From: an uncultured Acidobacteriota bacterium
Lineage (GTDB): Bacteria; Acidobacteriota; Thermoanaerobaculia; Thermoanaerobaculales; Sulfomarinibacteraceae
Assembly: GCA_963844845.1 (NCBI GenBank)
Contig: CAWJPW010000009.1
Coordinates: 155,599 to 219,598, forward strand
Direction of reading: 5' to 3'
DNA length: 64,000 bases
The position numbers and the translations under genes are program-made. Each line of letters starts with the position of its first letter. Within the stretch, counting starts at the first letter, position 1. Of the stretch, positions 45,333 to 60,467 are shown piece after piece. The notes beneath the pieces are model-generated. The model was given only the letters and a program-made list of their open reading frames with translations, was not told the DNA's origin and made no database searches.

Positions 45333-46268
45333 GTGAGGGCCACCATCGTGTCCCCTCCCGTGGAGCGCCTGGGCGAGCTGCAGCTCGTGGTCGTCACCGG
45401 CAAGGGTGGCGTGGGCAAGAGCGTCTTCACAGCGGTCCTCGGCCGCCGTCTGGCGGCCTCCGGCCGACGCGCACTCCTCATGGAGGTGGATCCGCGCGAG
45501 AGCCTTCACGCCCTGCTGGACGTGGCGCCGTCCGGCGGAGAGCCGGTGCAGGTATCCGCGGGGCTCCATCTGCAGAATGTCCAACCCCGCCGCGTGGCCG
45601 ACGACCTCGTGATCGAGCGGCTCAAGATCGGTCTCCTCACCCGCAGGGTGCTGGGTAGCCCCGTGTACCAGCACTTCGTCGAGGGCGCCCCCGGCCTCAA
45701 GGAGACGGCAGTGCTCGGCCGGGTACTGCGGCTCCTCGCGGGCCGTGATCTTCACGGCATGCCGCGACCCGACGTGGTGGTTCTCGACGCTCCCGCTACC
45801 GGCCACGGCGTCTCGCTGTTGGCGGCTCCCCGCTTGGTGGCGGACGCCGTGCGAGGCGGCCCGGTGGGAACCATGGCCGAGGAGATCGCCGGCTTTGTGG
45901 CCGACCCGGCCCGCACCGGCATCGTCATCGTCACGACCGCCGAGGAGATGCCCGTCCAGGAGGCGCAGGAGCTCCTCGACCTGGTGGAGGAACGCCTGCA
46001 CCACGCACCGCAGCTGGTCGTCGTCAACGCCGTCTACCCGGCCGTTCCCCCAACAGTCGCCAGGATACGAGCCCCCGACGCGACCACCGCCCTGTGGCGT
46101 CGCCGTCGCCGGGTCAACGAGCGGGAGCTTGACCGGCTGGCCCGTCGCTGGCCCGGTCCCACCGCCATCCTCCCCCTGCTTCCCCTCGACCGCGGGCCCG
46201 AGCTGGTTGCCGCGCTCGAGGTCGAGCTCGACCGAGCGCTGCGCTTCGCCAGCGCCTCAACGCCATGA
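45333..46268 (+). CDS. ArsA/GET3-family ATPase, subunit 1 (Rv3679/BagA-like)
   Basis: GKGGVGKS, APGLKE, LDAPATGH, EEMPVQE, VVN. Confidence 0.82.
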   Translation: MRATIVSPPVERLGELQLVVVTGKGGVGKSVFTAVLGRRLAASGRRALLMEVDPRESLHALLDVAPSGGEPVQVSAGLHLQNVQPRRVADDLVIERLKIGLLTRRVLGSPVYQHFVEGAPGLKETAVLGRVLRLLAGRDLHGMPRPDVVVLDAPATGHGVSLLAAPRLVADAVRGGPVGTMAEEIAGFVADPARTGIVIVTTAEEMPVQEAQELLDLVEERLHHAPQLVVVNAVYPAVPPTVARIRAPDATTALWRRRRRVNERELDRLARRWPGPTAILPLLPLDRGPELVAALEVELDRALRFASASTP

Positions 46269-47338
46269 GCGTCGTACGGCCTGCCGAGCCATTGGTGGTC
46301 GTCGTCGGCTCGGGCGGCGTCGGCAAGACGACGCTGGCGGCGGCCCTGGGCGTGGGCGGCGCCCGCTCCGGCCGCGACACCTTGGTCATGACCTTCGACC
46401 CCTCGCTACGGCTCAAGGATGCGCTCGGCGTGGGCGACGCCGCTCGGGGCCGCGAGGTCGAGGTCGATCTCGATGCCCCCGCTTCGCTGCACGCGAGCCT
46501 CCTCGACGCCGGTCAGACCTTCGACCGCCTGGTGGAGCACTACTCGCCCGACGACGCAGCGCGCGACCGCATTCTCGGCAACCGCTTCTACCGCCACCTC
46601 GCCGCCAGCCTCGCCGGCGTGTTGGAGTACATGGCGGTGGAGCGCCTCTTCGAGGTCGCGGCCCAAGGCCGGTACCAGCAAGTGATTCTCGACACCCCGC
46701 CGACCCGCCAGGCCTTGGACTTCCTGCAAGCGCCCGAGCGCATCATCGGCTTCCTCGACAGCGGAGCGCTCAAGATCGCCCTCAAGCCCTGGTTCGACGA
46801 GTCGGGCCACATCCGCCCCATCGCCCGTCTCGGTCCCTTCGGGCGCAACGTGGAGGGTTTCCTGGACCGCCTGGTGGGTCTCGACCTTCTGCGTGACATG
46901 GCCGAGTTCTTCCAGGCGTTCGGCCCTCTGTACAAGGGCTTTCGTGCTCGTGCCCACGAGGTGCAGGCCCTCCTGCGTTCCCCCCGCACGATCTTCGTCC
47001 TGGTGAGCGGTCCGGGCCGTGAGCGGGTCGCCGACACGCTCTTCTTCGCCCGCCACCTGCGTGAGGCCGGCCACCGCCTGGGCCCCGTGGTGGTCAACCG
47101 GGTCCATCCCGAGCCCGACGGGGTCGCGCCCGCCTCGGATCCGCTGGCCGTGGCGCGCGACGGCCGCCAGCTGCTCGCCTGGCTCGGGCATCGCGACCGC
47201 GCGGGCGTCGAGCACCTCCGCTCGCTGCTCGGCGCGGAGCAGCCCCTGGCCGCCGTACCACTCCTCGCCGAGGAGCCCACCACGCTCGAGGGTCTCTCCG
47301 ATCTGGGCGACCTGCTCCAGGAGAGGCTGAGCCGTTGA
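46265..47338 (+). CDS. ArsA/GET3-family ATPase, subunit 2 (Rv3680/BagB-like)
   Basis: GSGGVGKTT, DPSLRLKDAL, EYMAVERL, LDTPPT..ALDFL.AP; ATGA overlap with subunit 1. Confidence 0.85.
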   Translation: MSVVRPAEPLVVVVGSGGVGKTTLAAALGVGGARSGRDTLVMTFDPSLRLKDALGVGDAARGREVEVDLDAPASLHASLLDAGQTFDRLVEHYSPDDAARDRILGNRFYRHLAASLAGVLEYMAVERLFEVAAQGRYQQVILDTPPTRQALDFLQAPERIIGFLDSGALKIALKPWFDESGHIRPIARLGPFGRNVEGFLDRLVGLDLLRDMAEFFQAFGPLYKGFRARAHEVQALLRSPRTIFVLVSGPGRERVADTLFFARHLREAGHRLGPVVVNRVHPEPDGVAPASDPLAVARDGRQLLAWLGHRDRAGVEHLRSLLGAEQPLAAVPLLAEEPTTLEGLSDLGDLLQERLSR

Positions 47339-47452
47339 CGCACCGCGGCATGAGAGCCCTGCACCTGGCTCGCCAACGCGTCTCACCGGGCCGCGCCCAA
47401 GCGGTGAAACCTCGGCAGCCAGGCGCAGTTATCCCCTAGATTCGCCCGCTCC

Positions 47453-47509
47453 TTGACACTCTTGCCGCAGCGCGGTACATTGTCACCGGAAGACGCCGCA
47501 CAGCGGCAA
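47453..47509 (+). promoter_or_regulatory. phaR promoter with two putative PhaR operators
   Basis: TTGACA(47453)-17-TACATT(47476); ttgccgcagcgcggtac (47462) and acgccgcacagcggcaa (47493). Confidence 0.75.
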
Positions 47510-47526
47510 GAACCCGGGACGCCGAC

Positions 47527-48150
47527 ATGGCGTTGGAGACCACAATGATCCGACTGATCAAGCGCTACGGCAGCCGCAAGCTCTACGACACCGAGGAGAG
47601 CCGCTACGTCTCCCTCGAGGAGCTCGCCGCCTGGATTCGCCACGGGACCGAGATCCGGGTGGTAGACAACAAGACGGCCGAAGACGTCACCTCGCAGACG
47701 CTTACCCAGATCATCTCAGAGGAGGGCCGTCACGGGCGCACACTCCTGCCCAACGAGCTCCTGCACGAGCTCATCCGTCTCGGCGAGGAGGCCGTCAGCT
47801 CGGGGGTGGAGCAGCTGCAGACCGGCGTCGATCGGCTGGTGCAAGTTTCCATGGACCGACTCGGCCCCGTGCGCCGGGCCCGCGAGGAGATGGGGCGCCT
47901 GCGCGAGCGGCTCGCCGATCTCGAGGAGTCCCTGGTGGAGCTCGAGCAGGAGCGTCAGGAGCCTCCAGCTCCCGCGCCGGCCCCTGCCCGGACGCGACGT
48001 CCGGCAGCCAAGGCGTCGACGGCCAAGGCCAAGAAGGGCGCCAGCACGACCAAGAAGGCTGGCAGCACCACTCGCAAGGCGTCCACCACCAGGTCCAAGG
48101 CGGCCCCTCGTGGCCGCTCCCGCGCGACCAAAGACGGCAAGGCGTCATGA
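47527..48150 (+). CDS. phaR: PhaR-type PHA/granule regulator with Lys/Ala-rich C-terminal tail
   Basis: IKRYGSRKLYDTEESRYVSL, DVTSQTLTQII; coiled coil; AAKASTAKAKKG tail. Confidence 0.85.
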   Translation: MALETTMIRLIKRYGSRKLYDTEESRYVSLEELAAWIRHGTEIRVVDNKTAEDVTSQTLTQIISEEGRHGRTLLPNELLHELIRLGEEAVSSGVEQLQTGVDRLVQVSMDRLGPVRRAREEMGRLRERLADLEESLVELEQERQEPPAPAPAPARTRRPAAKASTAKAKKGASTTKKAGSTTRKASTTRSKAAPRGRSRATKDGKAS

Positions 48151-48464
48151 TTCGCCGCTCCACCCGGGCCCTCTACCTCGCCGGCCTCGGCGTCGTCACC
48201 TCGGCTCGCCGGCAGGGCCAGGCAGTCTTCACCCGCCTCGTCACCGAGGGCCGCAGAGTCGAGCGCCGTGAGCGCGCCCTCCTCAGCGGGCGTGTGGACC
48301 GCCTTCGGCACCGCGCCGACGATCTCGGGGCGGCCGTCGGCGCCCGCCTCGAGTCGGGCTGCGGCGCCCTGCTGCGGCGAGCCGGCGTACCCACCCGGCA
48401 GGAGGTTGCCGAGCTGGTCTCCCGCCTCGCCGAGCTCGACGCCCGGCTGAAGCGCCTGGGTTGA
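48147..48464 (+). CDS. Phasin (PhaI/PhaF family)
   Basis: YLAGLG, F.RLV.EG, GVPTRQEV..L..RL; ATGA overlap with phaR. Confidence 0.75.
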   Translation: MIRRSTRALYLAGLGVVTSARRQGQAVFTRLVTEGRRVERRERALLSGRVDRLRHRADDLGAAVGARLESGCGALLRRAGVPTRQEVAELVSRLAELDARLKRLG

Positions 48465-48594
48465 CCCGCACCGTTCGGCGGCGCATCTGCCCCGCGACGG
48501 TATAGCGTGACGCAGGGGCCCCTGGGCACCTCCACGCCGCACCTGCGCTATGCTGGACGAAACCCATCGGACGACTCGGCGACAGGAGGTTGGG

Positions 48595-49020
48595 ATGGCG
48601 GCGGAGATCTTCACCGAGGCCTGGGCTCAGGACTGGCGTACGTGCATCAACGACAACGACGACTACCGCAAGGCGGCCACCCGCTGGGAGGGCGCCATCG
48701 CCCTGGTGATGTCGGCAGACGCCGCGATGGGGGTCCCGGAGCAGCGCGCCGTCGTCGCCGACCTGTGGCATGGCGACTGCCGGGCGGCCTCCGCCGCCGG
48801 GCCGGACGAGCTGGAGAGCCCTCCCTACGTGATCCGGGCCACGCCCGCCACCTGGAAGCGGGTTCTCGACGGCAGCACCGACCCCATCGTCGGGCTCATG
48901 GGAGGAAAGCTCAAGCTCGAGAGGGGCGGTCTCTTCTCTCTTCTGCCTTACGCCCAGGCCGCCAAGCAGCTGGTCACCTCCGCCCGTCAGGTCGCGACGA
49001 GCTTCCCCGAAGGTTGGTAG
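48595..49020 (+). CDS. SCP2 sterol/lipid-binding domain protein
   Basis: DLWHGDCR, TWKRVLDG..DP..GLMGGKLKL; GGAGG RBS. Confidence 0.8.
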   Translation: MAAEIFTEAWAQDWRTCINDNDDYRKAATRWEGAIALVMSADAAMGVPEQRAVVADLWHGDCRAASAAGPDELESPPYVIRATPATWKRVLDGSTDPIVGLMGGKLKLERGGLFSLLPYAQAAKQLVTSARQVATSFPEGW

Positions 49021-49316
49021 CCGTCCGAAGATCACGACGATTATTCACCGCGACCGCCGGTATGTCAGCGAGGGCGACACTTCTGTCGGCCGTAGCGCCC
49101 GCGACGCAGCGTTGCGACGTCCCGGCGCCACCTTGGTCGGGTCACCACCCTGAAGGCATTCCCGCGGCCTCGCGACGATGACTTCCGAGATCTCCGGGCT
49201 TTGGTGGCCCTTGAGAAGCAGCACCACCGGCTGTCAGCTCATGTGAAGTCGTCAGCTCGCGTCGAGTGCCCGCCGCGGTGTCGATGGTCGGGCGGTATGG
49301 GAAGGAGAAGTGGCGG

Positions 49317-50681
49317 CTACCGGCTCGTGCCGGTCAGGGCGTCGGTTTCTTCGACGAAGAGTTCGGCGACGGTGTCGGGGTCTGGCACCAGGCCCGCGTC
49401 CACCGCCACCCCCACCCGCACCTGCCCGGCATAGCTGAAGATGCTGATGCCCAGCCCGAGACGGGCCGACTGCGGGACCCAGAACATGATGTTCTCCACC
49501 GGCGCCCCGGCGAGGTAAATCGTCTCGCGCGGGCCGGGCACATTGGTGAGCACGAGGGTCGCCTTGCTGCCGAAGATACTCACCCCGAACCCCTGAACCT
49601 CGGGGCTCGTGCGTCCGAGCACCCCCAGCACCCCGAAGGCCACGCCGGCCTCATCCGAGGACTTGATCTCGTCCATCCGGCGCTTCACATCGAGAAGCCG
49701 CGCGGTGGGATCGCGAATACCGATGGGCAGCTCCACGAACACCAGGCCGAACCGGTTACCAAGCTCGTCGGCCTCCTCGGAACGACGCAGGTTCACCGGC
49801 ACCACCGCCCGGATACTGAGGTTGTCCACCGCCTCGCCCCGGGCCGCCAGGTAACGACCCAACGCCCCGGCGACGCCTGCCAAGAGCACGTCGTTCACGG
49901 TCGCCCCAAAGCGCTTCCCGGCGAGCTTGATGGGGTCCAGAGCCACGGGCTCGGTCCACGCCGCCTTCTTGGTCACACCGAGAGGACCATGGAATGGCGT
50001 TCGAGGATCGAGAGGGAGCGTGAGCAGACGCCGCAGCACCCCTGCCGCGCTGGCGCCCGAGCGAGCGAGCTCGAGCACACGCTGAGGGTTGAGAATCGCG
50101 TCCATCCCCTCGTCGAGGATCCTGGTCACCGGCAACGTACGGCGGGTGCGGCGCCGCGCCGACGGCGCCCCCTGCGTCCCATTGCCACCCGGATTCTCCT
50201 CCTGGTCCGTGAGCGAGAACATGACCCGCACCAGCGCCACGCCGTCGCCGATGCAGTGGTGCAGGCGCACCACAAGGGCGCTTCCACCCTCGCCGCGGTC
50301 GATGACATGCATCTGCCAGAGCGGCCGCGAACGGTCGAGCGGAGTGCTCATGAGGTCGCTCACCAGCTCCTGCAGCGCCGCCTCGTCACCCGGCTCGGGC
50401 AGGGCAACCCGGTGCAGGTGTGCCTTCAGCGCGAAGTGGTCGTCGTCCACCCAGCTCGGCCGACCCAAAGGCAGACGAGACTCGACGACACGCTGGCGAA
50501 AACGGTCATAGGCCAGGAGCCGGTCCTCGATGACGCTCTTGAGGCGCCCGGGGTCGAGCCGCTCGCGGAAGGTCATGAGACCGGTGATTGTCATCAGGTT
50601 GGTGGGCTCCTCCATGCGGAGCCACGCGCTGTCCACATTGGACAGCGGTTCGCTCGTCTCGGGCGGCAACTCCACCGTCAC
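49317..50681 (-). CDS. Wax ester synthase / diacylglycerol acyltransferase (WS/DGAT)
   Basis: DSAWLRME, PLDRSRPLW, catalytic HHCIGDG, ATVNDV, VPVNLR, TNVPGP; GGGAGG RBS before GTG 50681. Confidence 0.93.
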   Translation of the reverse strand: MTVELPPETSEPLSNVDSAWLRMEEPTNLMTITGLMTFRERLDPGRLKSVIEDRLLAYDRFRQRVVESRLPLGRPSWVDDDHFALKAHLHRVALPEPGDEAALQELVSDLMSTPLDRSRPLWQMHVIDRGEGGSALVVRLHHCIGDGVALVRVMFSLTDQEENPGGNGTQGAPSARRRTRRTLPVTRILDEGMDAILNPQRVLELARSGASAAGVLRRLLTLPLDPRTPFHGPLGVTKKAAWTEPVALDPIKLAGKRFGATVNDVLLAGVAGALGRYLAARGEAVDNLSIRAVVPVNLRRSEEADELGNRFGLVFVELPIGIRDPTARLLDVKRRMDEIKSSDEAGVAFGVLGVLGRTSPEVQGFGVSIFGSKATLVLTNVPGPRETIYLAGAPVENIMFWVPQSARLGLGISIFSYAGQVRVGVAVDAGLVPDPDTVAELFVEETDALTGTSR

Positions 50682-50860
50682 GTCAACGCCTCCCGTGCGC
50701 CTCGCTCTTCTTTGCCGAGCCTGTTCGCGACCATGATGATACCAGCTGCCACCTCCCCTCGAGCGAGCCCCAGCGCCGCCTCGAACCAGGGAGCCACCGG
50801 CACGCGCGGCCGCCCGGGTGCGGCACGTCCCGTTCGACCACCCAGACAACGTCAGAATCG

Positions 50861-51026
50861 TGCTGAATGCCACACTGCGGCATTTTCAGCATTCATCACC
50901 TCATGCTACTCATCTTATTTTTGGTGTAACATCACTTAAAGAAATTGACGCAATGCAGAAAAATCGCTTGACAGACGTGCCGCAGCGCGTTATATTCTCC
51001 CTGTGATTGATGCCGCATAGCGGCAT
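50861..51026 (+). promoter_or_regulatory. Phasin promoter with an array of putative PhaR operators
   Basis: TTGACA(50968)-17-TATATT(50991); boxes at 50867, 50945 (weak), 50977, 51010 (atgccgcatagcggcat); AT-rich. Confidence 0.78.
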
Positions 51027-51094
51027 AGCGAACCGCCAGGGTACGAAACTCAACGGGTCGGAACGCCGACCGGGACTATGCACGGAGGTGCGTG

Positions 51095-51505
51095 ATGGTG
51101 ACCAAGAAGGCCAAGGAGATGCAGAGCGACATGGTGGAATCCGCCCACAAGGTCTGGCTGGCGGGCCTCGGAGCCCTTGCCGTGGCCGAGCAGGAGGGCA
51201 GCAAGGTGTTCAAGAACCTGGTCGAGAAGGGCCAGGGCGTGGAGTCCAAGGGCAAGGAGCAGGTCGACAAGGCGAAGGGCGCCGTCACCGGCATGCGTAC
51301 CGTGGTGGAGAGCTACTGGGAGACGCTCGAGAAGACCGTCGACGAGAAGGTAACGGGCGCCATCCGTCGTCTCGGCGTCCCCACCAAGGACGAGATCGCG
51401 AAGCTCACGAAGAAGGTCGAGGAGCTCACCGCCAGCATCGACAAGCTGCGCAAGAAGGACTCCCCGCCCAAGCAAACCGGATCCAAGTCTGCCCCGACCA
51501 CCTGA
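51095..51505 (+). CDS. Phasin (PhaF/PhaI family)
   Basis: ESAHKVWLAGLGA, KVFKNLVEKG, RLGVPTKDEI..L.KKVEEL; GGAGG RBS. Confidence 0.9.
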   Translation: MVTKKAKEMQSDMVESAHKVWLAGLGALAVAEQEGSKVFKNLVEKGQGVESKGKEQVDKAKGAVTGMRTVVESYWETLEKTVDEKVTGAIRRLGVPTKDEIAKLTKKVEELTASIDKLRKKDSPPKQTGSKSAPTT

Positions 51506-51561
51506 CGTCGGGACCCTTCCCGAGCTCTGAGCGCCGTCGCGAGGCGGCGCTTGCCGTTGGG

Positions 51562-53241
51562 CTAACGCTCGCCCCGCCGCAAGGGCAGCAGGAGCCCGAG
51601 CGCGATGAGGCCGGTCCATACCGGCCACGGCACATGGACAGCCGCGAGCATCGCGCCGCTCACCAGACAGAAGCCTCCGTAGAGGGTGGCGCGCAGGCCC
51701 GTGAACGGGCTTTCCGGAGGCCTCCTGGTATGTTGCTCCAGCAGCCGGAGGCCTTCCGTCACGAGCGCGGGCACCCGCACGACGGCCTCGAGGATGTCCG
51801 GCGCGCCCCGCATCACCTCCCGCGACAGACGTAGGGGGCTGAACATCTGCCGAAACACCCGTCTCACATGGCGCTCGGACGCCTCGGCGACGTTGAAGTC
51901 GGAGTCGAGCAGGAAGCCCAATGCCTCGTAGGTCACCAACGCCTTCACCGTCATCACCAGCTCGACGGGAAAGTACATGTGGTAATGGCCCCCCCGCCGC
52001 ACCGACTCCAGCAGGAGCTGCGCTAAGGAGTACTCCTCCAGTCGCCTGGCACGACGCCAGCGGCGGCTGATCTCCTCCACCTCACGACGGAATCCGGCGG
52101 GGTCGCAGCCCGGCGCCTGGTCCGCCAGAGCCGTGAGGTAGCGAGCGGCCCCCTCGAAGTCTTCGATCACCACACAGTAGTAGTAGTACAGCAGTGACCG
52201 CCGGAGCTCGCGGTCGAGACGACCCACCATCCCAAGGTCGATGAAGCCCAGGCGAGGCCCGGGCAGCACCAGAAGGTTGGCAGGGTGGAGGTCGGCGTGG
52301 AAGAAGCCGTCCTGATAGAGCATGCGGATGACCGCCGACGCGCCCGCGTCGATGAGGCGGGCGCGATCCTCGGCAGACAGCGCCAGGGCCTCGGGCGTGT
52401 CCGGCCGGAAGCCCTCCAGGTACTCCATGCAGAGCACGTCACGTCCCGACAGCGTCCGCTCGATGCCGGGGAACACGACCTCCGGAAGATCGCGGAAGTT
52501 GGCGGCGAAGGTCTCGGCGTTCTCCGCCTCGCGCGTCATCTCGACCTCGTGCAGCGTGTACTGGAGGAACTCCGCCACCAGTCGACGCGGGTGGTAGCGG
52601 GGCAGCAGCAGCTGCAGCGTCGCACCGACCCCGCGCAGCAGCCTGGCGTCGCGGTGCAGCACGTGACGGATCCCCGGCTTGACCACCTTGAGGATCACCG
52701 CCTCTCCGCTGTGTGTGGTGGCACGGTGGGTCTGGGCGATGGATGCGGAGGCCAGCGGCGCCGGGTCAACCCACGCAAAGAGCTCGTCGAGGGGCCGACC
52801 GAGATCGCGCTCGACGATCTCCTGGATGGCTTCGAACGGTACCGGCGGCAGCCGGTCGAGCAGGTTACGAAGCTCCGAGGTCACCGTTTCCGGTAGGAGA
52901 TCGCGGCGCAGGCTGAGTAGCTGTCCCAGCTTCACGAAGGTCGGACCGAGCAGCTCGAGCCGCCGGCGCAGCTGCACGGGAAACGGCTGCCGTACGAGCT
53001 CGCGGCTGACGAACAGGTACAAGGGCAGGCTTGCCAGCATCCACGCTGCGCCTCCGAGGGCGGTTCGCCGCTCCCGGCGCCGCCGCCTCGCCTCGGCCAC
53101 GAAAGCCCCCGCCAGTAGCCCGAAGACATGGCGCTGGATCTCCGCGAAGCGCCGCACGAGCCCTCGCTGACGCCACCGCGGCCGCCCACGTGGCGCGCCC
53201 CCTCTTCCCGCGCGGACCCCGTCGGCCCCCCCGCCGGTCAC
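51562..53241 (-). CDS. ABC1/AarF/UbiB family atypical kinase
   Basis: LGPTFVKLGQ, ASASIAQ, KVVKP, FFHADLHPAN, IDLGMVG; two C-terminal TM helices; start uncertain. Confidence 0.88.
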   Translation of the reverse strand: MTGGGADGVRAGRGGAPRGRPRWRQRGLVRRFAEIQRHVFGLLAGAFVAEARRRRRERRTALGGAAWMLASLPLYLFVSRELVRQPFPVQLRRRLELLGPTFVKLGQLLSLRRDLLPETVTSELRNLLDRLPPVPFEAIQEIVERDLGRPLDELFAWVDPAPLASASIAQTHRATTHSGEAVILKVVKPGIRHVLHRDARLLRGVGATLQLLLPRYHPRRLVAEFLQYTLHEVEMTREAENAETFAANFRDLPEVVFPGIERTLSGRDVLCMEYLEGFRPDTPEALALSAEDRARLIDAGASAVIRMLYQDGFFHADLHPANLLVLPGPRLGFIDLGMVGRLDRELRRSLLYYYYCVVIEDFEGAARYLTALADQAPGCDPAGFRREVEEISRRWRRARRLEEYSLAQLLLESVRRGGHYHMYFPVELVMTVKALVTYEALGFLLDSDFNVAEASERHVRRVFRQMFSPLRLSREVMRGAPDILEAVVRVPALVTEGLRLLEQHTRRPPESPFTGLRATLYGGFCLVSGAMLAAVHVPWPVWTGLIALGLLLPLRRGER

Positions 53242-53281
53242 GGCGCACCCCCGAGCCGCCGCTCGCTCATGGCGAGGCTCC

Positions 53282-54826
53282 TCAGCGGTTGCGCCCGTAC
53301 TTCTCGTGGCTGGAGACCCAGTCAAGCGAGGAGATGGCGGCGCCCAGCGAGATCTCACCGGCCAGCGCCACCGCCGCGACGATCTCGGCCAGCTTCCGGA
53401 CCTTGGCCTTACCGACACACCCAAGAAGCTCGAGGCATTCGCGCTGGGTCGCGAGGCCCGTTCCGCCGCCGTACGTGGCCACGATCAGGGACGGAATCGT
53501 GATCGAGAGGTAGAGGTCACGGTCCGGCGTGAGCTCGGAGTAGAGGATCCCGGAGGAGGACTCGGCCACGTTTGCCACATCCTGTCCGGTGGCGATGAAC
53601 ATGGCAGTGATTCCGTTGGGCGAGTGGCAGCCGTTGTTGTTGGCGCCCGAGAGGAACGCGCCCACGTTGGCAATAGAGGAGTGATACTGGAGGCTCTCCG
53701 GCTCCACCCGCATGTTCTCGATCAGCACCTCGCGGGGAATCACTACCTCCGCGGTGACCCGCTTGCCGCGCGTACGCATAACGTTGATCTGAGAGTGCTT
53801 CTTGTCGGTGGCCAGATTCGACTCCAGGTAGAACGACCGCACCGTGTCCACCTGGTCGAGGATCCAGCTGCAGGCGGCGAATGTCGCCCGCCCGACCATG
53901 TTCTGACCGGCGGCGTCACCGGTGGAGAAGTTGAAGCGCAGGAAAGCGATCTTGCTCGCCAGGTAGGTGTCGACATAGAGCAGCTTCGCGACCTTGGAGG
54001 TGGCCTCCGCCGCCTGCCGGATCTCCTCGAGGTGCTCGTCGACCCAGTCGCGGAAGCCGCGCGCTTCCCGCGCCGACTCGAACACGAACACGGGCGCCCG
54101 CTGCATCTTGTCGTCCTGCACGGTCGTGATGGCGCCGCCGGCGAGATTGATGACCTTCATCCCCCGGTTGTAGGACGCCACCAGCGTGCCCTCCGTGGTG
54201 GCGAGCGGGATGAGGTACTCCCCCTGAGCGAACTCACCGTTGACGCGCAGCGGGCCGGCGAGGCCGATGGGGACCTGAGCGACGCCGCTGAAGTTCTCGA
54301 TGTTGCCACCAGTCATGGTGGGATCGAAGGAGTACGACTTGACGTGGTGGAGCGTCGCTCCGGTGAAGCTCTCGGCGAACTGCTGGCGGCGCGCAATGAT
54401 CTCGGGCGAGGTGTTGTCTTCCTTGTCGTAGGGCACCGAGGTCGCCGCCTGTGTGACGTCCCGGATCGAGTCCTTGACCGTAAACCTCAGCTTGCCGAAA
54501 GGGGTCGTGTCGAAGACCAGCTCGAGCTCATGCTTGCCCTTGCCGAGCTCCCCCCCCTCCCACACCATGGTGACGACCTTGGCGAGGGGAAACGGCAAGG
54601 GAGCTGCGGTCGAGATGTCCCTCGGGCGCACCGTAGCGTCATCGTCGAGATCGACTCGGAGCCGCTCGAGCGGCACCGAAGCGCCATCCACGCTCACCTC
54701 CCGGATCCCCACCACGCGGGCATCGCTGAGACGGTTCTTGAGGCTGAAGTGAACGCCTTCCCCATCGCTACGGAGACTCCCCAGAGTATAGAGCTGCTTC
54801 AGGATCAGTGACGGAATTCTCACCAC
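53282..54826 (-). CDS. Class I HMG-CoA reductase with extra N-terminal domain
   Basis: ENFSG, TTEGTLVAS, GDAAGQNM, SNLATDKK, TGQD.A, GGGT, GEISL, SHEKYGR; about 120 aa N-terminal extension. Confidence 0.88.
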   Translation of the reverse strand: MVRIPSLILKQLYTLGSLRSDGEGVHFSLKNRLSDARVVGIREVSVDGASVPLERLRVDLDDDATVRPRDISTAAPLPFPLAKVVTMVWEGGELGKGKHELELVFDTTPFGKLRFTVKDSIRDVTQAATSVPYDKEDNTSPEIIARRQQFAESFTGATLHHVKSYSFDPTMTGGNIENFSGVAQVPIGLAGPLRVNGEFAQGEYLIPLATTEGTLVASYNRGMKVINLAGGAITTVQDDKMQRAPVFVFESAREARGFRDWVDEHLEEIRQAAEATSKVAKLLYVDTYLASKIAFLRFNFSTGDAAGQNMVGRATFAACSWILDQVDTVRSFYLESNLATDKKHSQINVMRTRGKRVTAEVVIPREVLIENMRVEPESLQYHSSIANVGAFLSGANNNGCHSPNGITAMFIATGQDVANVAESSSGILYSELTPDRDLYLSITIPSLIVATYGGGTGLATQRECLELLGCVGKAKVRKLAEIVAAVALAGEISLGAAISSLDWVSSHEKYGRNR

Positions 54827-54888
54827 GTACTCCCGTCCGGTATCGAGGTTTGGTCTCGAGTCTATCACCGTGCCGGCGCTTCGAGGAG

Positions 54889-55530
54889 CTACCAGCGCAG
54901 CGTCACCCCGACGCTCGCTTCGCCCTGAACGAAGTTGCTGGAGTAACCGAACTCGGCCGCGTTGCTGTGGTTGGACAGCGCGTCGTTGGCCGCGGTCCAG
55001 TAGCCTCTGAGATCGACGCGCAAGCCGACGTGGGGTGACAGGACGTACTTGGCGCCGGTGGCGAGGCTCGCCGAGAAGCGGGTGTCGGCGCTGCCTCCCG
55101 TGACCTGCGGCTCGAGCAGCGTGACCCCTGCGCCGACGCCCACGTAAACCGTGCCGAAACGCCGGAACCAGCTCTGAACGAGACCCAGGTGGAGGTAGGT
55201 CACATCCAGGTCGCCGAGCTCGCGGGAGCCAGTTGAGAGCTCATACCTGCTCTGCAGCGCTCCGCTCTGACGACTGACCCAGAGCTCCATCTGCCGGTCG
55301 GCGCTGACCGGAAGGTCGAGGGCGAGGCCATAGGACGCCGACCCCTCGAGGTCGGCGGTGAACTTGAACGGGAAGACGACGGTGTCGAACCCTTCCACGC
55401 GACCACCGTCGCGGTAACCGCCGAACACGGTGAGCTCCGGCCGGGTGATCCCGTCGCCCGACCCCGGCGCCCACTGCGCCCATGCCAGCGAGGGCGCCAG
55501 CAGCACGAGCACGACCATCAACCTGCGCAT
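54889..55530 (-). CDS. Outer membrane beta-barrel protein
   Basis: Signal peptide, YVGVGAG, GLRVDLRG, C-terminal Trp. Confidence 0.75.
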   Translation of the reverse strand: MRRLMVVLVLLAPSLAWAQWAPGSGDGITRPELTVFGGYRDGGRVEGFDTVVFPFKFTADLEGSASYGLALDLPVSADRQMELWVSRQSGALQSRYELSTGSRELGDLDVTYLHLGLVQSWFRRFGTVYVGVGAGVTLLEPQVTGGSADTRFSASLATGAKYVLSPHVGLRVDLRGYWTAANDALSNHSNAAEFGYSSNFVQGEASVGVTLRW

Positions 55531-55622
55531 TCACCCTCCACTGCCGGCGGCGTGACTGCCGCACGTGAGATGCCTCCGACTATAATCCGCTCGCGCGGCA
55601 CCAGCAACGCCGGAGGAACCGC

Positions 55623-56423
55623 ATGGCGACCGGAGAACTACAGCTTCACCCCCGCTGCATCGGCCTCGCGCTAAGCGGAGGAGCGGTGCGCGGAGCCGCA
55701 CACGTGGGAGTTCTCCAGGTCCTCGAGGAGGCCGGCATCCGCCCCGCAGTCGTGGCGGGCACCAGCGTCGGTTCGTTGGTAGGGGCGGCTTACGCCGCGG
55801 GCCTCTCCGCCGCCGCCATCGGCGACATCTTCCGCACCGTGCGCTGGCCACGGCTTGCCCGCCTTTCCCTGGGCAGTCGGTACAGCCTCTTTGACACCCG
55901 TCCCCTCGGCCGGATCCTCCAGGAGCGCTTCGGCGTCGAGTGCATCGAGGGTCTGGCGCGGCCGTTCGCCGCCATTGCCTGCGACGTCCTCACCGGCGAG
56001 CGGGTCGTGTTCCGCTCGGGCCCCCTCGCCGCCGCCCTGCGGGCCAGCTCCGCGGTTCCCGGCGTCTTCCCCCCGTTGGATCTCGACGGCCGTCTCCTGG
56101 TGGACGGCGCGGTGCTCGACAACCTGCCGGTCGGCGTCGCACGCGACCTCGGAGCCGACTACGTCATCGCAGTGGACCTCGTGCCACCGCCCTCGGGCAA
56201 CCGCCGCCCCCGCAACTTCCTCGAGCTGATAATGACTACAGGCTACCTGTGGAGCCGGGCAAACCACCCCGCACCTGGCCCGGCCGAGTGCCGGGTGGTG
56301 CCGGACGTGGCTGACTTCCTCGGCTGGGACCTTGCCGACGTCGCCGAGCTGGAGACCCGCGGCCGCGCAGCCGCCGAGGAGGCCCTGCCCGGACTGCGGC
56401 GCGACCTCGGCCTCGGCGGCTGA
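55623..56423 (+). CDS. Patatin-like phospholipase/lipase
   Basis: LSGGAVRG, GTSVG nucleophile, ASSAVPG, VDGA; TATAAT at 55581. Confidence 0.92.
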   Translation: MATGELQLHPRCIGLALSGGAVRGAAHVGVLQVLEEAGIRPAVVAGTSVGSLVGAAYAAGLSAAAIGDIFRTVRWPRLARLSLGSRYSLFDTRPLGRILQERFGVECIEGLARPFAAIACDVLTGERVVFRSGPLAAALRASSAVPGVFPPLDLDGRLLVDGAVLDNLPVGVARDLGADYVIAVDLVPPPSGNRRPRNFLELIMTTGYLWSRANHPAPGPAECRVVPDVADFLGWDLADVAELETRGRAAAEEALPGLRRDLGLGG

Positions 56424-56560
56424 CCTCCCGGGGAGGCAGTGTCACAGATCGGGGACAGATGGCGGCCGCACCAGGCGCCCGAGGTGGCGGCCGGGGTTGG
56501 CATCGAGGTTGCGTTGACCACCTGCAGCCCGGCATCGAACCGTCGGGCATGGAGGTACCG

Positions 56561-57274
56561 ATGCGTCAACGCCTGATGGTCTTGCTGCTCATCACCGCCT
56601 GCTCCACCGTAACGGCCCTCCCCGCCAACGCTCAGGGGCGCTGGGGGCCCGGAGCCGACTCCTCCTCACTGCGCTTCCGAGTCGGCCTCTTCGACCCAGC
56701 GGCTGATTCGAGCTACTGGGACGGGAGCCTCCTCGACTTCACCGGCAGCGCCGGCGACTTCCAGGACGTGGCGGTGGGCCTCGACTACGTGTGGCGCTTC
56801 AGCTCCCGCAGCGGCCTGATGCTCACCTTCGACCACTGGGAGGGCGACACCACCCAGGCCTACCGGGACTATGTGGACGGCGGCGGCGGCGACATCCGCC
56901 ACACCACCACGGTGGAGACATCGGGGATCGGGGCGGCCTGGGTGTATCACCTCGTCGACCGGCCGGCCCCGGTGTCACCCTACCTCGGTGTAGGCGGCGG
57001 GCTGGTGTCCTGGCGCCTGGAGGAGGCCGGCCGCTTCATCGACTTCACCACCGCCCAGGGGGAAATCTTCGCCGCCCGCTTCGTCGATGAGGGCACGACC
57101 CTCGCGTGGTACGCCCTCGCCGGCGTCGAGGTGGGCCTCTCCCCCACCTGGTCGCTGCTGGTGGAGGCGCGTTGGCGCAGTGCCGACGACGAGCTCAGCG
57201 GCGACTTCGCCGGCCTCGGCACCCTCGACCTCTCGGGAACGGAGCTCACCTGCGGGGTGTCGCTCAACTTCTGA
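56561..57274 (+). CDS. Outer membrane beta-barrel protein
   Basis: Signal peptide, SPYLGVGGG, EARW, C-terminal Phe; GGAGG RBS. Confidence 0.75.
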   Translation: MRQRLMVLLLITACSTVTALPANAQGRWGPGADSSSLRFRVGLFDPAADSSYWDGSLLDFTGSAGDFQDVAVGLDYVWRFSSRSGLMLTFDHWEGDTTQAYRDYVDGGGGDIRHTTTVETSGIGAAWVYHLVDRPAPVSPYLGVGGGLVSWRLEEAGRFIDFTTAQGEIFAARFVDEGTTLAWYALAGVEVGLSPTWSLLVEARWRSADDELSGDFAGLGTLDLSGTELTCGVSLNF

Positions 57275-58043
57275 AGGTCGTCGCGGCGATCGCGTCGTAG
57301 AGCTCACTCAGCTCTGCGGTGAGCTTGTGCCGGGGGGCCAGGTGTATGAGCGGGCGGTGCACCTCGTGCGACTCCCGCACCTTCACCGACGCCGAGAGGG
57401 GCGGATCGAGGACCGGGAGCCCCGCTTCCCGCAGCTCCTGCACCAGCCGCCTGGGCAGGCGCGCCCGCCCCTGGAACTGGTTGACCACGATCCCCGCCAC
57501 CTCGAGGCGGGGGTTGTGGTCCGCCCGCACCTCGGCGACGCTGTCCAGCAGGCCGTGCAAGGCGCGCCGGGAGAACTCGTCACAGTCGAATGGGATCAGG
57601 CAGCGGTCCCCTGCAATCAGGGCGGACAGGGTGAAGAAGTTCACCGCCGGCGGCGTGTCGAGGTAAATCTCGTCGTACCCATCGAGGGCGTCGAGGGCGT
57701 CCCGCAGTTTGTAGATCTTGTAGCGTGACTCGAGCTTCGGCTGCAGCGCCTCGAGCTCCGCACTCGCGGGGACTACGTCGAGACCCGGGAACGGCGACGG
57801 ATGAACGTAGGCGGCGGCCTCCTCGCGGAACAGCTGGAATCCCAGGGTCTGCTCGAAGAAGGTGCCAAGGGACGGGTGCAGAGTGCCCGCCTCGTCACCG
57901 AGAAGGTAGTGGCTGGCGTTGGCCTGGGGATCGAGATCGACGACGAGAGTCCGCAGGCCACGGCTCGCAGCGATGGCGGCGAGGTTGCACACGAGCGTGG
58001 ACTTACCCACGCCGCCCTTCTGGTTGAAGACAACCCAGCGCAT
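57264..58043 (-). CDS. Orphan ParA family ATPase
   Basis: NQKGGVGKST, DLDPQAN, DTPP, IPFDCD, VRES; no parB in the window. Confidence 0.9.
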   Translation of the reverse strand: MRWVVFNQKGGVGKSTLVCNLAAIAASRGLRTLVVDLDPQANASHYLLGDEAGTLHPSLGTFFEQTLGFQLFREEAAAYVHPSPFPGLDVVPASAELEALQPKLESRYKIYKLRDALDALDGYDEIYLDTPPAVNFFTLSALIAGDRCLIPFDCDEFSRRALHGLLDSVAEVRADHNPRLEVAGIVVNQFQGRARLPRRLVQELREAGLPVLDPPLSASVKVRESHEVHRPLIHLAPRHKLTAELSELYDAIAATTFRS

Positions 58044-58069
58044 GGTGCAACCTCCCGGATGCTGCGGCG

Positions 58070-58098
58070 AGTCTATTCGAATTGCCGCAGTGCGTCAA
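58070..58098 (-). promoter_or_regulatory. parA promoter overlapped by a putative PhaR operator
   Basis: Minus strand TTGACG(58098)-17-TAGACT(58075); box ttgccgcagtgcgtcaa at 58082-58098. Confidence 0.65.
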
Positions 58099-58211
58099 GA
58101 TGCCGCGTCCTCTCAACGCGGGCGACTGCACTCCGCCACGACGGCTCGCACCGGACACTCGCCAGAGACCCACGCTACAATTCGCCCCCCGACGGAGCGC
58201 GCGGAGGTCGC

Positions 58212-60467
<2,256 letters not shown>

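Follow-up and report, generated by a model that had tools for sequence, protein, structure and literature searches.

In an uncultured bacterium of the phylum Acidobacteriota (assembly GCA_963844845.1), the gene of a PhaR-family regulator is located in a cluster of lipid genes on contig CAWJPW010000009.1. In this paper we looked at a short palindrome that recurs in this cluster and at the protein that may bind it. The window, which is the whole stretch of DNA that was analysed (64,000 nucleotides, positions 155,599 to 219,598 of the contig), belongs to a genome of 4.5 Mb with 70% G+C, in 11 contigs and 98% complete. Its PhaR sequence is nearest to those of metagenome-assembled genomes (MAGs) labelled Thermoanaerobaculia or Candidatus Sulfomarinibacteraceae, of the phylum Acidobacteriota. 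Control of phasins by PhaR is the textbook circuit of polyhydroxyalkanoate (PHA) storage. Based on sequence analysis we suggest, with good confidence, that eight copies of the palindrome are operators of the PhaR encoded at 47527-48150. The eight boxes had been listed in the initial annotation, and each of them is found in the sequence where it had been placed:

47335..47351, box R0, predicted distal phaR operator: TTGACGCACCGCGGCAT; 18.3 bits; about 127 bp upstream of R1, overlapping the stop codon of the upstream ArsA/BagB-like gene
47462..47478, box R1: TTGCCGCAGCGCGGTAC; 20.8 bits; fills the spacer of the phaR promoter and overlaps its -10
47493..47509, box R2: ACGCCGCACAGCGGCAA; 18.1 bits; 31 bp from R1
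50867..50883, box P0, distal box of the phasin control region: ATGCCACACTGCGGCAT; 21.0 bits; about 190 bp upstream of the likely WS/DGAT start
50945..50961, box P1 (weak): TTGACGCAATGCAGAAA; 14.7 bits; just upstream of the phasin -35
50977..50993, box P2: GTGCCGCAGCGCGTTAT; 16.6 bits; fills the spacer of the phasin promoter and overlaps its -10
51010..51026, box P3, a perfect 17-bp palindrome (ATGCCGC-ATA-GCGGCAT): ATGCCGCATAGCGGCAT; 23.8 bits; the top site of the genome
58082..58098, box A1: TTGCCGCAGTGCGTCAA, read on the minus strand as TTGACGCACTGCGGCAA; 21.9 bits; contains the -35 hexamer of the ParA-like gene

The gene order of the region was assigned by Pfam profile matches, and the genes of the window that are predicted to be controlled from these boxes are:

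47527..48150, plus strand: phaR (PF07879, 87.7 bits), with a PHB_acc_N DNA-binding domain at amino acids 10-68, a helical middle part and a tail rich in Lys, Ala, Ser and Thr; single copy in the genome
48147..48464, plus strand: small phasin of 105 amino acids (PF05597, 54.4 bits), its start overlapping the phaR stop
51092..51505, plus strand: main phasin of 137 amino acids (PF05597, 108.4 bits), starting at GTG 51092 or ATG 51095, after GGAGG
57264..58043, minus strand: ParA/MinD-family ATPase of 259 amino acids (PF13614, 109.1 bits; PF01656, 88.4 bits)

Since its start overlaps the phaR stop, the 105-amino acid phasin is presumably a member of the phaR operon, in which an SCP2-domain gene is possibly the third gene.

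Frequency of the boxes

The sites have the form of a 15-17-bp palindrome, wTGCCGCA-N-TGCGGCAw. They were scored with a symmetrised matrix of 21 nt, built from 27 sites in ten related loci of other genomes only, which avoids circularity. In the 64-kb window exactly eight matches reach 10 bits or more, and these are the eight listed boxes (14.7-23.8 bits). With up to three mismatches, TGCCGCA-N-TGCGGCA is found 16 times in the window compared with 7.8 +/- 2.6 times in shuffles, and none of 100 shuffles reaches 16; with up to two mismatches it occurs 55 times in the 4.5-Mb genome, six of these inside the 10.8-kb stretch of the boxes. Eleven sites of the genome score at least 18 bits (six in the region), where four second-order Markov simulations gave 0, 0, 2 and 1, and 15 sites score at least 14.5 bits, where 5-9 were simulated. 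Eight of these 15 best sites are in the region, and each of the 15 is either in non-coding DNA or at the 5' edge of an open reading frame that was called too long. The motif is commoner than background when compared with shuffles of the window and, at high scores, with Markov simulations of the genome. Because the excess appears only at high scores, the weak boxes at 50945 (14.7 bits) and 50977 (16.6 bits) owe their place to their position in the array and to their conservation.

Two half-sites had also been pointed out, before the SCP2 gene (48534) and before a patatin gene (55557). The letters are present and the meaning given to them is not borne out, the box scores there being -8.2 and -13.6 bits; the former is the best score near the SCP2 gene, which has no box of its own. 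Since both heptamers turn up often (one TGCCGCA per 4.6 kb and one CGCCGCA per 1.6 kb), these half-sites are at chance level and add nothing, and as operators of SCP2 and of the 266-amino acid patatin they were dropped.

Predicted promoters and operator geometry

The region 47250-58300 was scanned for sigma-70-like consensus promoters, with the transcription start taken about 7 nt after the -10. Five such promoters were found where 0.5 are expected, and boxes overlap three of the five:

47453..47481, plus strand: phaR promoter, TTGACA-17-TACATT, 10 of 12 consensus matches
50968..50996, plus strand: phasin promoter, TTGACA-17-TATATT, 11 of 12 consensus matches
58070..58098, minus strand: ParA-like promoter, TTGACG-17-TAGACT, 9 of 12 consensus matches

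The layout TTGACA-N4-TGCCGCAGCGCG-N-TAyATT, described earlier as shared by the first two, is exact at both. Relative to the predicted start, the box centres are located at about -145 (R0), -18 (R1) and +13 (R2) at phaR, and at about -128 (P0), -50 (P1), -18 (P2) and +15 (P3) at the phasin gene; the distal box of each is 80-130 bp further upstream of the array. The box of the ParA-like gene is centred at -27 (A1), with the -35 inside the box. Judged from the sequence, the boxes at these three genes are in repressor positions, where a bound protein would occlude the promoter. The gene tex was ruled out as the target of the box at 58082, since the -35 of the ParA-like gene is within this box and the box is also present at orthologues that have no tex beside them.

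Neighbouring boxes had been reported to lie 31-33 bp apart, about three helical turns. Measured from centre to centre the distances here are indeed 31, 32 and 33 bp, and this spacing is kept in relatives: in their phasin loci the distance between adjacent boxes is 32-33 bp for 32 of 44 pairs and 30-35 bp for 40 of the 44, and in the phaR loci (28 loci) all 17 such pairs are spaced by 29-34 bp.

Conservation of the boxes at phaR and phasin genes

PhaR occurs in all 24 genomes that were sampled from the same family (almost every one a genus of its own) and in 4 of 16 from the sister family. In each of 29 phaR loci from 28 relatives, the 270 bp upstream of the gene hold between one and three boxes scoring 13 bits or more, and in all ten loci of the related-locus search they hold two or three; elsewhere in the 3.5-kb phaR loci boxes are almost absent. 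One box ends with GGTAT, GGTAC, GGTAA or GGTAG in 25 of the 29 loci, its TA opening a -10-like element, and the remaining four comprise three with GTTAC or GCTAT (L042, L045 and L049) and one exception (L026). Of the 36 phaR loci displayed, 22 have a counterpart of the distal box R0, located upstream of the promoter box at a distance of 130-185 bp; this distal box forms an island in otherwise unconserved flanks. Further families without the PHA synthase PhaC also have a box upstream of phaR (7 of 7 loci, from six families plus one locus of family f9 in which the box is weaker, 17.0 bits). In family f3, a 2-Mb genome (G041, locus L164) has only 36% G+C in its phaR locus and still a GC-rich, near-perfect box there, TTGCCGCAATGCGGTAT (28.9 bits), located 30 bp upstream of a phaR-phasin pair.

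The phasin orthologue has two to five boxes upstream in all 22 stand-alone loci; in six loci it directly follows phaR and the boxes there precede phaR. One weak phasin paralogue shows no boxes upstream. The P2-type box, TGCCGCAxxGCGTTAT, recurs in 22 of 22 stand-alone phasin loci, the position equivalent to P1 is a strong box in most relatives, and in relatives the distal phasin box precedes the array by 80-115 bp, with either WS/DGAT or SCP2 as the upstream neighbour. For the conservation tests of phasin, and likewise of the ParA-like and patatin genes discussed below, the DNA was different from that in the training set of the matrix.

PhaR as the predicted binding factor

The regulator matches PF07879 (PHB_acc_N) with 87.7 bits (cut-off 25, E 5.5e-25) over profile positions 1-59 of 61, and both phasins pass the PF05597 cut-off of 28.8 bits; with TIGR01837 the 137-amino acid phasin scores 94.2 bits, just under the cut-off of 94.7. 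Predicted operators at its own and at the phasin promoters, as is typical of the PhaR family, are present and conserved in relatives. A PHA synthase, which usually belongs to such a system, was not found in the genome with PF07167 and TIGR01836. No solved structural relative of PhaR was found, the best match in the PDB having an E of 0.44.

The matrix has at least 97% G/C at positions +/-2 and +/-3, and R/Y at +/-1 (63% A plus 28% G). The resulting CGCR-N-YGCG fits the published YGCR-N-YGCR, the common core being GCR-N-YGC with a single central base. The flanks of proteobacterial sites (T at +/-4 and AT-rich arms) are not seen: +/-4 is C/G in 97%, giving CC..GG followed by TG/CA arms with W outside. 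By this sequence comparison we regard the box as a variant PhaR box. A further family of the same class, f13, has a PhaR that is only 36-48% identical and stands beside a class-III-like PhaC, and there the upstream palindromes are CTGCR-N-YGCAG; judging from these sequences the factor and the motif co-vary, the box variant changing with the PhaR subfamily. One MAG labelled Gemmatimonadales has the same box and the same gene order (ArsA-like pair, phaR, phasin, patatin, WS/DGAT, ABC1, HMG-CoA reductase). The assignment of the boxes to PhaR, which the initial annotation had inferred, is strongly supported computationally by their promoter-occluding placement, their conservation at phaR, the core match and this co-variation.

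Residues ~145-207 of PhaR (47950-48150) form a Pro/Ala linker followed by the Lys/Ala/Ser/Thr-rich tail, which is variable in relatives, where tblastn matches end at about residues 150-200. The tail presumably resembles the histone-H1-like tail of Pseudomonas PhaF, and it could tether lipid droplets to the nucleoid.

Extent of the predicted regulon

The initial annotation spoke of a regulon across the lipid cluster. This stands for the promoters of the phaR operon, the 137-amino acid phasin and the ParA-like gene; it is not supported for WS/DGAT, SCP2, the 266-amino acid patatin or the other cluster genes, and the matrix scan of the window gave no box at the ABC1 kinase, the HMG-CoA reductase or the two outer-membrane-protein genes. 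At the ParA-like orthologue a box TTGACGCA-N-TGCGGCA followed by a -10-like hexamer is found in 14 of 21 related loci, none with tex beside it. Counted by genome, it is present in 14 of 16 within the family and in 0 of 3 in the sister family, and most of the loci are unlinked to the cluster. The ATPase itself has a deviant Walker A motif, KGGVGKS, and the N-terminus MRWVVFNQKGGVGKS (read by eye from the minus strand); its ParA_partition score is 86.7 bits, the cut-off being 180, and it is below every NCBIfam equivalog cut-off.

Outside the window, on contig 11, a 547-amino acid patatin-like lipase has a 21.4-bit box over its -10. This box is kept in 12 of 13 relatives (in 9 of the 13 at 16 bits or more), and in the sister family the lipase is found only in the four PhaR-positive genomes. 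WS/DGAT has boxes nearby only in seven loci, in which it adjoins phasin or phaR, and as a conserved direct target it is not supported; in this genome, box P0 may have a role at the divergent WS/DGAT promoter. Based on these comparisons, the core regulon that is predicted to be conserved comprises phaR, together with the small phasin and perhaps SCP2, the 137-amino acid phasin, the ParA-like ATPase and the distant 547-amino acid patatin; its members would be a regulator, a coat protein, a possible positioning ATPase and a possible mobilising lipase.

Three other high-scoring sites of the genome did not hold up in relatives. The box at a malic enzyme (C9:4808) is kept in 0 of 10, which are maybe paralogues at ~50% identity, that of an M20 peptidase-thiolase operon (C1:196860) in 0 of 2, and that of an aldehyde dehydrogenase/beta-lactamase-fold pair (C11:47708) in 1 of 4. 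The sites at a B12-radical-SAM gene (C3:301340, 16.4 bits) and at NMO/infC (C1:267470, 16.2 bits) are in a range where 5-9 chance sites per genome are expected. All five are treated as lineage-specific or unconfirmed. C9:1491 was rejected as a separate site, being a copy of C9:4808 within a fold-back duplication at the contig end. In this contig (C9:1-6300) the first ~3.1 kb repeat the next ~3.1 kb in inverted orientation with 83-100% identity, in 20 collinear inverted-repeat blocks, so that the malic-enzyme promoter and its box are duplicated; this looks like a fold-back assembly artefact.

Among weak matrix matches, three copies of GCTCGCCGCTTCGCGGCACGC were seen in non-coding DNA (C11:589533, 589603 and 589745, at intervals of 70 and 142 bp), which may be a short repeat array of CRISPR-like period. 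The 17-mers CTGCCGCCTTGCGGCGG and CCGCCGCAAGGCGGCAG each occur at four exact places (C1:506083, C3:145302, C10:385517 and C11:507365 for the one; C1:515922, C11:37012, 37687 and 328387 for the other) and are probably a repeated element or RNA gene that is unrelated to the PhaR box.

Neighbouring genes

The remaining genes of the region, again by Pfam, are the following:

45333-46268, plus strand: ArsA/Get3-like ATPase
46265-47338, plus strand: second ArsA/Get3-like ATPase (ArsA/BagB-like), its stop codon overlapped by box R0
48550..49020, plus strand: SCP2-domain gene (PF02036, 22.7 bits)
49317..50873, minus strand: WS/DGAT (PF03007 and PF06974), one copy in the genome
51562-54868 (-): ABC1 kinase, then HMG-CoA reductase, after the 137-amino acid phasin
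Between HMG-CoA reductase and the ParA/MinD-type ATPase: outer-membrane beta-barrel gene (-), 266-amino acid patatin (+) and second beta-barrel gene (+)
58212-60467, plus strand: tex

The true start of WS/DGAT is likely the GTG at 50681, with GGGAGG before it, because from 50873 on the first 64 codons look like filler rich in Arg, Gly and Ala. For the ArsA/Get3-like pair (45333-47338) the best NCBIfam models are the mycobacterial BagA and BagB (95 and 225 bits, below cut-off). In the Gemmatimonadales-labelled MAG and in several further families of the class, phaR is likewise directly preceded by this pair, which may be part of a droplet module, for example by delivering tail-anchored proteins. 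The ABC1 atypical kinase and HMG-CoA reductase, which are box-free, adjoin phasin here, in the Gemmatimonadales-labelled MAG and in several relatives. Their neighbourhood hints at an isoprenoid link with the storage cluster.

Proposed mechanism and the storage inclusion

In the mechanism that we propose, a PhaR dimer would occupy each palindrome with one monomer per half-site. Since the boxes overlap the -35, the -10 or the +1, bound PhaR would exclude RNA polymerase at the phaR, phasin and ParA-like promoters, and the strict 32-33-bp phasing suggests that the dimers bind cooperatively on one face of the helix. By analogy with the canonical circuit, repression would be lifted once PhaR is titrated onto a hydrophobic storage inclusion.

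One question that is raised by this mechanism is which inclusion could serve, as PF07167 matched in 0 of 41 relatives and TIGR01836 above cut-off in 0 of 41. The same searches were positive in 18 of 18 f13 genomes (class-III-like PhaC, ~335 bits), the only family of the sample in which they were, and where both positions are listed the f13 PhaC lies within ~1-2 kb of phaR. The class survey covered a sample of 121 genomes, 58 of them with PhaR and 48 with WS/DGAT. Nearly every WS/DGAT-positive genome is also PhaR-positive (47 of 48), and among the 63 PhaR-negative genomes one has WS/DGAT and none has PhaC. PhaC is missing from 40 of the 58 PhaR-positive genomes, and 29 of these 40 have WS/DGAT; most of the 40, which lie outside f13, are at least 93% complete. 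Family f13 (G061, G111 and G114; loci L158-L160) also carries WS/DGAT, in G114 within 4 kb, and possibly pictures the ancestral state before the loss of PhaC.

Because a PHA synthase was not detected and PhaR co-occurs with WS/DGAT, the best candidate for the inclusion is a wax-ester/triacylglycerol droplet, to which we give about an even chance. That PhaR of this genome is titrated by neutral-lipid droplets is in our opinion the most economical reading, held at a little under even chances. PhaR of Ralstonia eutropha was reported to bind polyethylene, polystyrene and polylactic acid non-specifically through hydrophobic interaction (PMC2873406). A survey from 2023 describes PHA-system and phasin genes beside WS/DGAT on metagenome scaffolds, which are left uninterpreted there, and calls neutral-lipid storage in Acidobacteriota unexplored (PMC10351704). 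In our literature search, with most subscription journals and supplements beyond its reach, no paper was found that links PhaR or phasin to WS/DGAT without PhaC.

A wider and more tentative suggestion, for which we see somewhat less than even chances, is that the PhaR/phasin module was re-purposed from polyester granules to wax-ester/triacylglycerol droplets in Thermoanaerobaculia without PHA synthase, and apparently in the Gemmatimonadales-labelled MAG. Here the droplets would titrate PhaR and so switch on a four-part kit that is conserved across genera: PhaR, the phasin coat, the patatin-type lipase for mobilisation and a dedicated ParA-like ATPase that would position or partition the droplets. 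If this is true, PhaR would be a general sensor of hydrophobic inclusions, PHA production could not be predicted reliably from PF07879, and a ParA-type system would for the first time be associated with a lipid storage organelle.

Alternative explanations

Several points weigh against our reading of the boxes and of the inclusion. Over the whole genome the excess is lost at a threshold of 12 bits (41 sites against 24-44 simulated), and the strict pattern, with up to one mismatch, differs only about two-fold between five PhaR-positive genomes (3-6 sites) and five PhaR-negative ones (0-4 sites). For phaR, the training loci L001-L010 overlap the test genomes, L004 and L022 are the same sequence from one genome, and related genomes are non-independent samples in any case. 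With TIGR01848, PhaR scores 86.1 bits, under the cut-off of 109.45 and over profile positions 1-86 of 107 only, and a search at E up to 0.01 gave no PF05233 (PHB_acc) match in it, which leaves its inclusion-binding part putative. The ParA-like orthologues of the sister family (three genomes) and of G006 (two copies) are box-free. None of 21 stand-alone WS/DGAT loci has a box of at least 12 bits (three of them have less than 300 bp upstream, and one further locus had no tblastn match). Finally, 11 of the 40 PhaR-positive, PhaC-negative genomes have no WS/DGAT, so the link with lipid is not obligatory, and because of these exceptions and of the lack of a box at WS/DGAT the droplet reading is kept near even chances.

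One possible option is that the boxes are PhaR operators of a canonical PHA circuit, with a synthase that was missed by both models or is located in the unassembled 2%, and with WS/DGAT as an incidental neighbour. This would fit the annotation of PhaR and of the PF05597/TIGR01837 phasins as PHA-granule proteins, the position of phaR beside a class-III-like PhaC in f13 of the same class, the 11 genomes just mentioned and the failure of WS/DGAT as a conserved direct target. Yet both PhaC models work in this class, as all 18 f13 genomes were found with them, and still neither matched in the 40 mostly near-complete PhaR-positive genomes outside f13, nor did they reach the cut-off in the 41 relatives; moreover, the regulon holds a patatin-type lipase and not a PHA depolymerase. 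A hidden PHA circuit is thus unlikely in our view.

The palindrome could also be bound by another transcription factor, its presence at phaR then reflecting co-regulation and not autoregulation. The assignment to PhaR was made by sequence comparison, +/-4 is C where proteobacterial PhaR boxes have T, the outer TG/CA arms are also different from theirs, and PhaR is under the TIGR01848 equivalog cut-off, all of which would suit such a factor. However, phaR is the one gene with boxes in every genome examined and no other regulator gene is consistently linked, whereas the GCR-N-YGC core with its single spacer base is that of validated PhaR sites and the box variant switches with the PhaR subfamily in f13, which makes a different factor very improbable. 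Even less can be said for palindromes that act as RNA, in hairpins or terminators, or that are dispersed repeats without a regulatory role. The boxes are palindromic, P3 and R2 would lie within the 5' leader and R0 overlaps the end of the upstream gene; but a 7-bp stem with a loop of 1-3 nt is a poor hairpin, a T-run after the boxes is absent, several boxes are upstream of the predicted start and inside promoters, and both half-sites are conserved in sequence beyond complementarity, with +/-2 to +/-5 at least 94% invariant. Box and position are conserved across genera while the flanks are not, unlike in mobile repeats. We regard this explanation as having next to no chance.

With the boxes taken as PhaR operators, what we describe is a PhaR-phasin circuit with a variant box, apparently conserved in a large uncultured acidobacterial lineage in which no PHA synthase was detected and in which the phyletic partner of the circuit is WS/DGAT. 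The type of circuit is already known. As far as our literature search reaches, the variant of the box and its strict phasing are new, as are a ParA-like gene and a patatin gene among the members and a context that lacks PhaC and is linked with WS/DGAT. Should neutral-lipid droplets be what PhaR senses, this would help to explain how fat and wax storage is organised and regulated in Gram-negatives outside Actinomycetota, and it would offer two candidate new players, the box-controlled ParA-like ATPase and the patatin lipase. It would also call for caution where surveys of soil take PhaR to mark PHA producers, as one preprint does (bioRxiv 10.1101/2024.12.02.626346).

Comparison with known systems

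A comparable concept is found in Rhodococcus jostii, where MLDS is a lipid-droplet protein and MLDSR its regulator. There too a DNA-binding regulator that is tied to neutral-lipid droplets controls a coat protein; the protein families and the operator are unrelated to those described here, and the system is actinobacterial.

The PhaR (AniA) of Sinorhizobium meliloti is close to our case in several respects (PMC12542648). Its motif is WNWD2NYGCRNYGCRNH2WNW, a palindromic operator with the core YGCR-N-YGCR, and mutating or removing the palindromes abolished the shifts in electrophoretic mobility assays. Phasin promoters carry two copies of the palindrome around the -35, comparable to the paired copies that flank or abut the -35 and -10 here. 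Genes of phasin and of storage-mobilising hydrolases are repressed until the inclusion sequesters PhaR, as is predicted here, and further peripheral targets lie in central metabolism there, as they may here. The differences are as follows (PMC12542648). The operator arms of S. meliloti are AT-rich, whereas here TG...CA surrounds a CCGC/GCGG core. The inclusion there is polyhydroxybutyrate (PHB) made by PhbC, and the hydrolases are PHB depolymerases, while here PhaC was not found and the hydrolase is a patatin-like lipase. Autoregulation of phaR is weak in S. meliloti, and boxes at phaR are the most conserved feature here. A ParA-like ATPase is a predicted target here, and none is described in the available part of the S. 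meliloti account.

In R. eutropha (Cupriavidus necator) H16 the PhaR sites of phaP1-phaP3, YTKNTGCRNYGCANMAR, are degenerate palindromes with one central spacer base, as are the boxes here, and each promoter has three of them, near the -35, the -10 and the transcription start (PMC12849132). The phaP promoter is bound cooperatively, with a sigmoid curve (PMC3570403), and both cooperativity and repression by occlusion, which we suggest for the boxes here, are described in these accounts (PMC12849132; PMC3570403). Position +/-4 is T in R. eutropha (TGCR...YGCA) and C here (CGCR...YGCG) (PMC12849132). The available parts of the two accounts report no regular phasing like the 32-33 bp seen here; R. 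eutropha PhaR also activates phaP3, and the organism stores PHB (PMC12849132; PMC3570403).

The nearest comparison within the class is family f13. Its phaR adjoins the class-III-like PHA synthase, and its PhaR identity (36-48%) and its box (CTGCR-N-YGCAG) set it apart from the system described here; what the two share is the class itself, palindromes upstream of phaR with the GCR-N-YGC core, and the presence of WS/DGAT, which is found in 18 of 18 f13 genomes.

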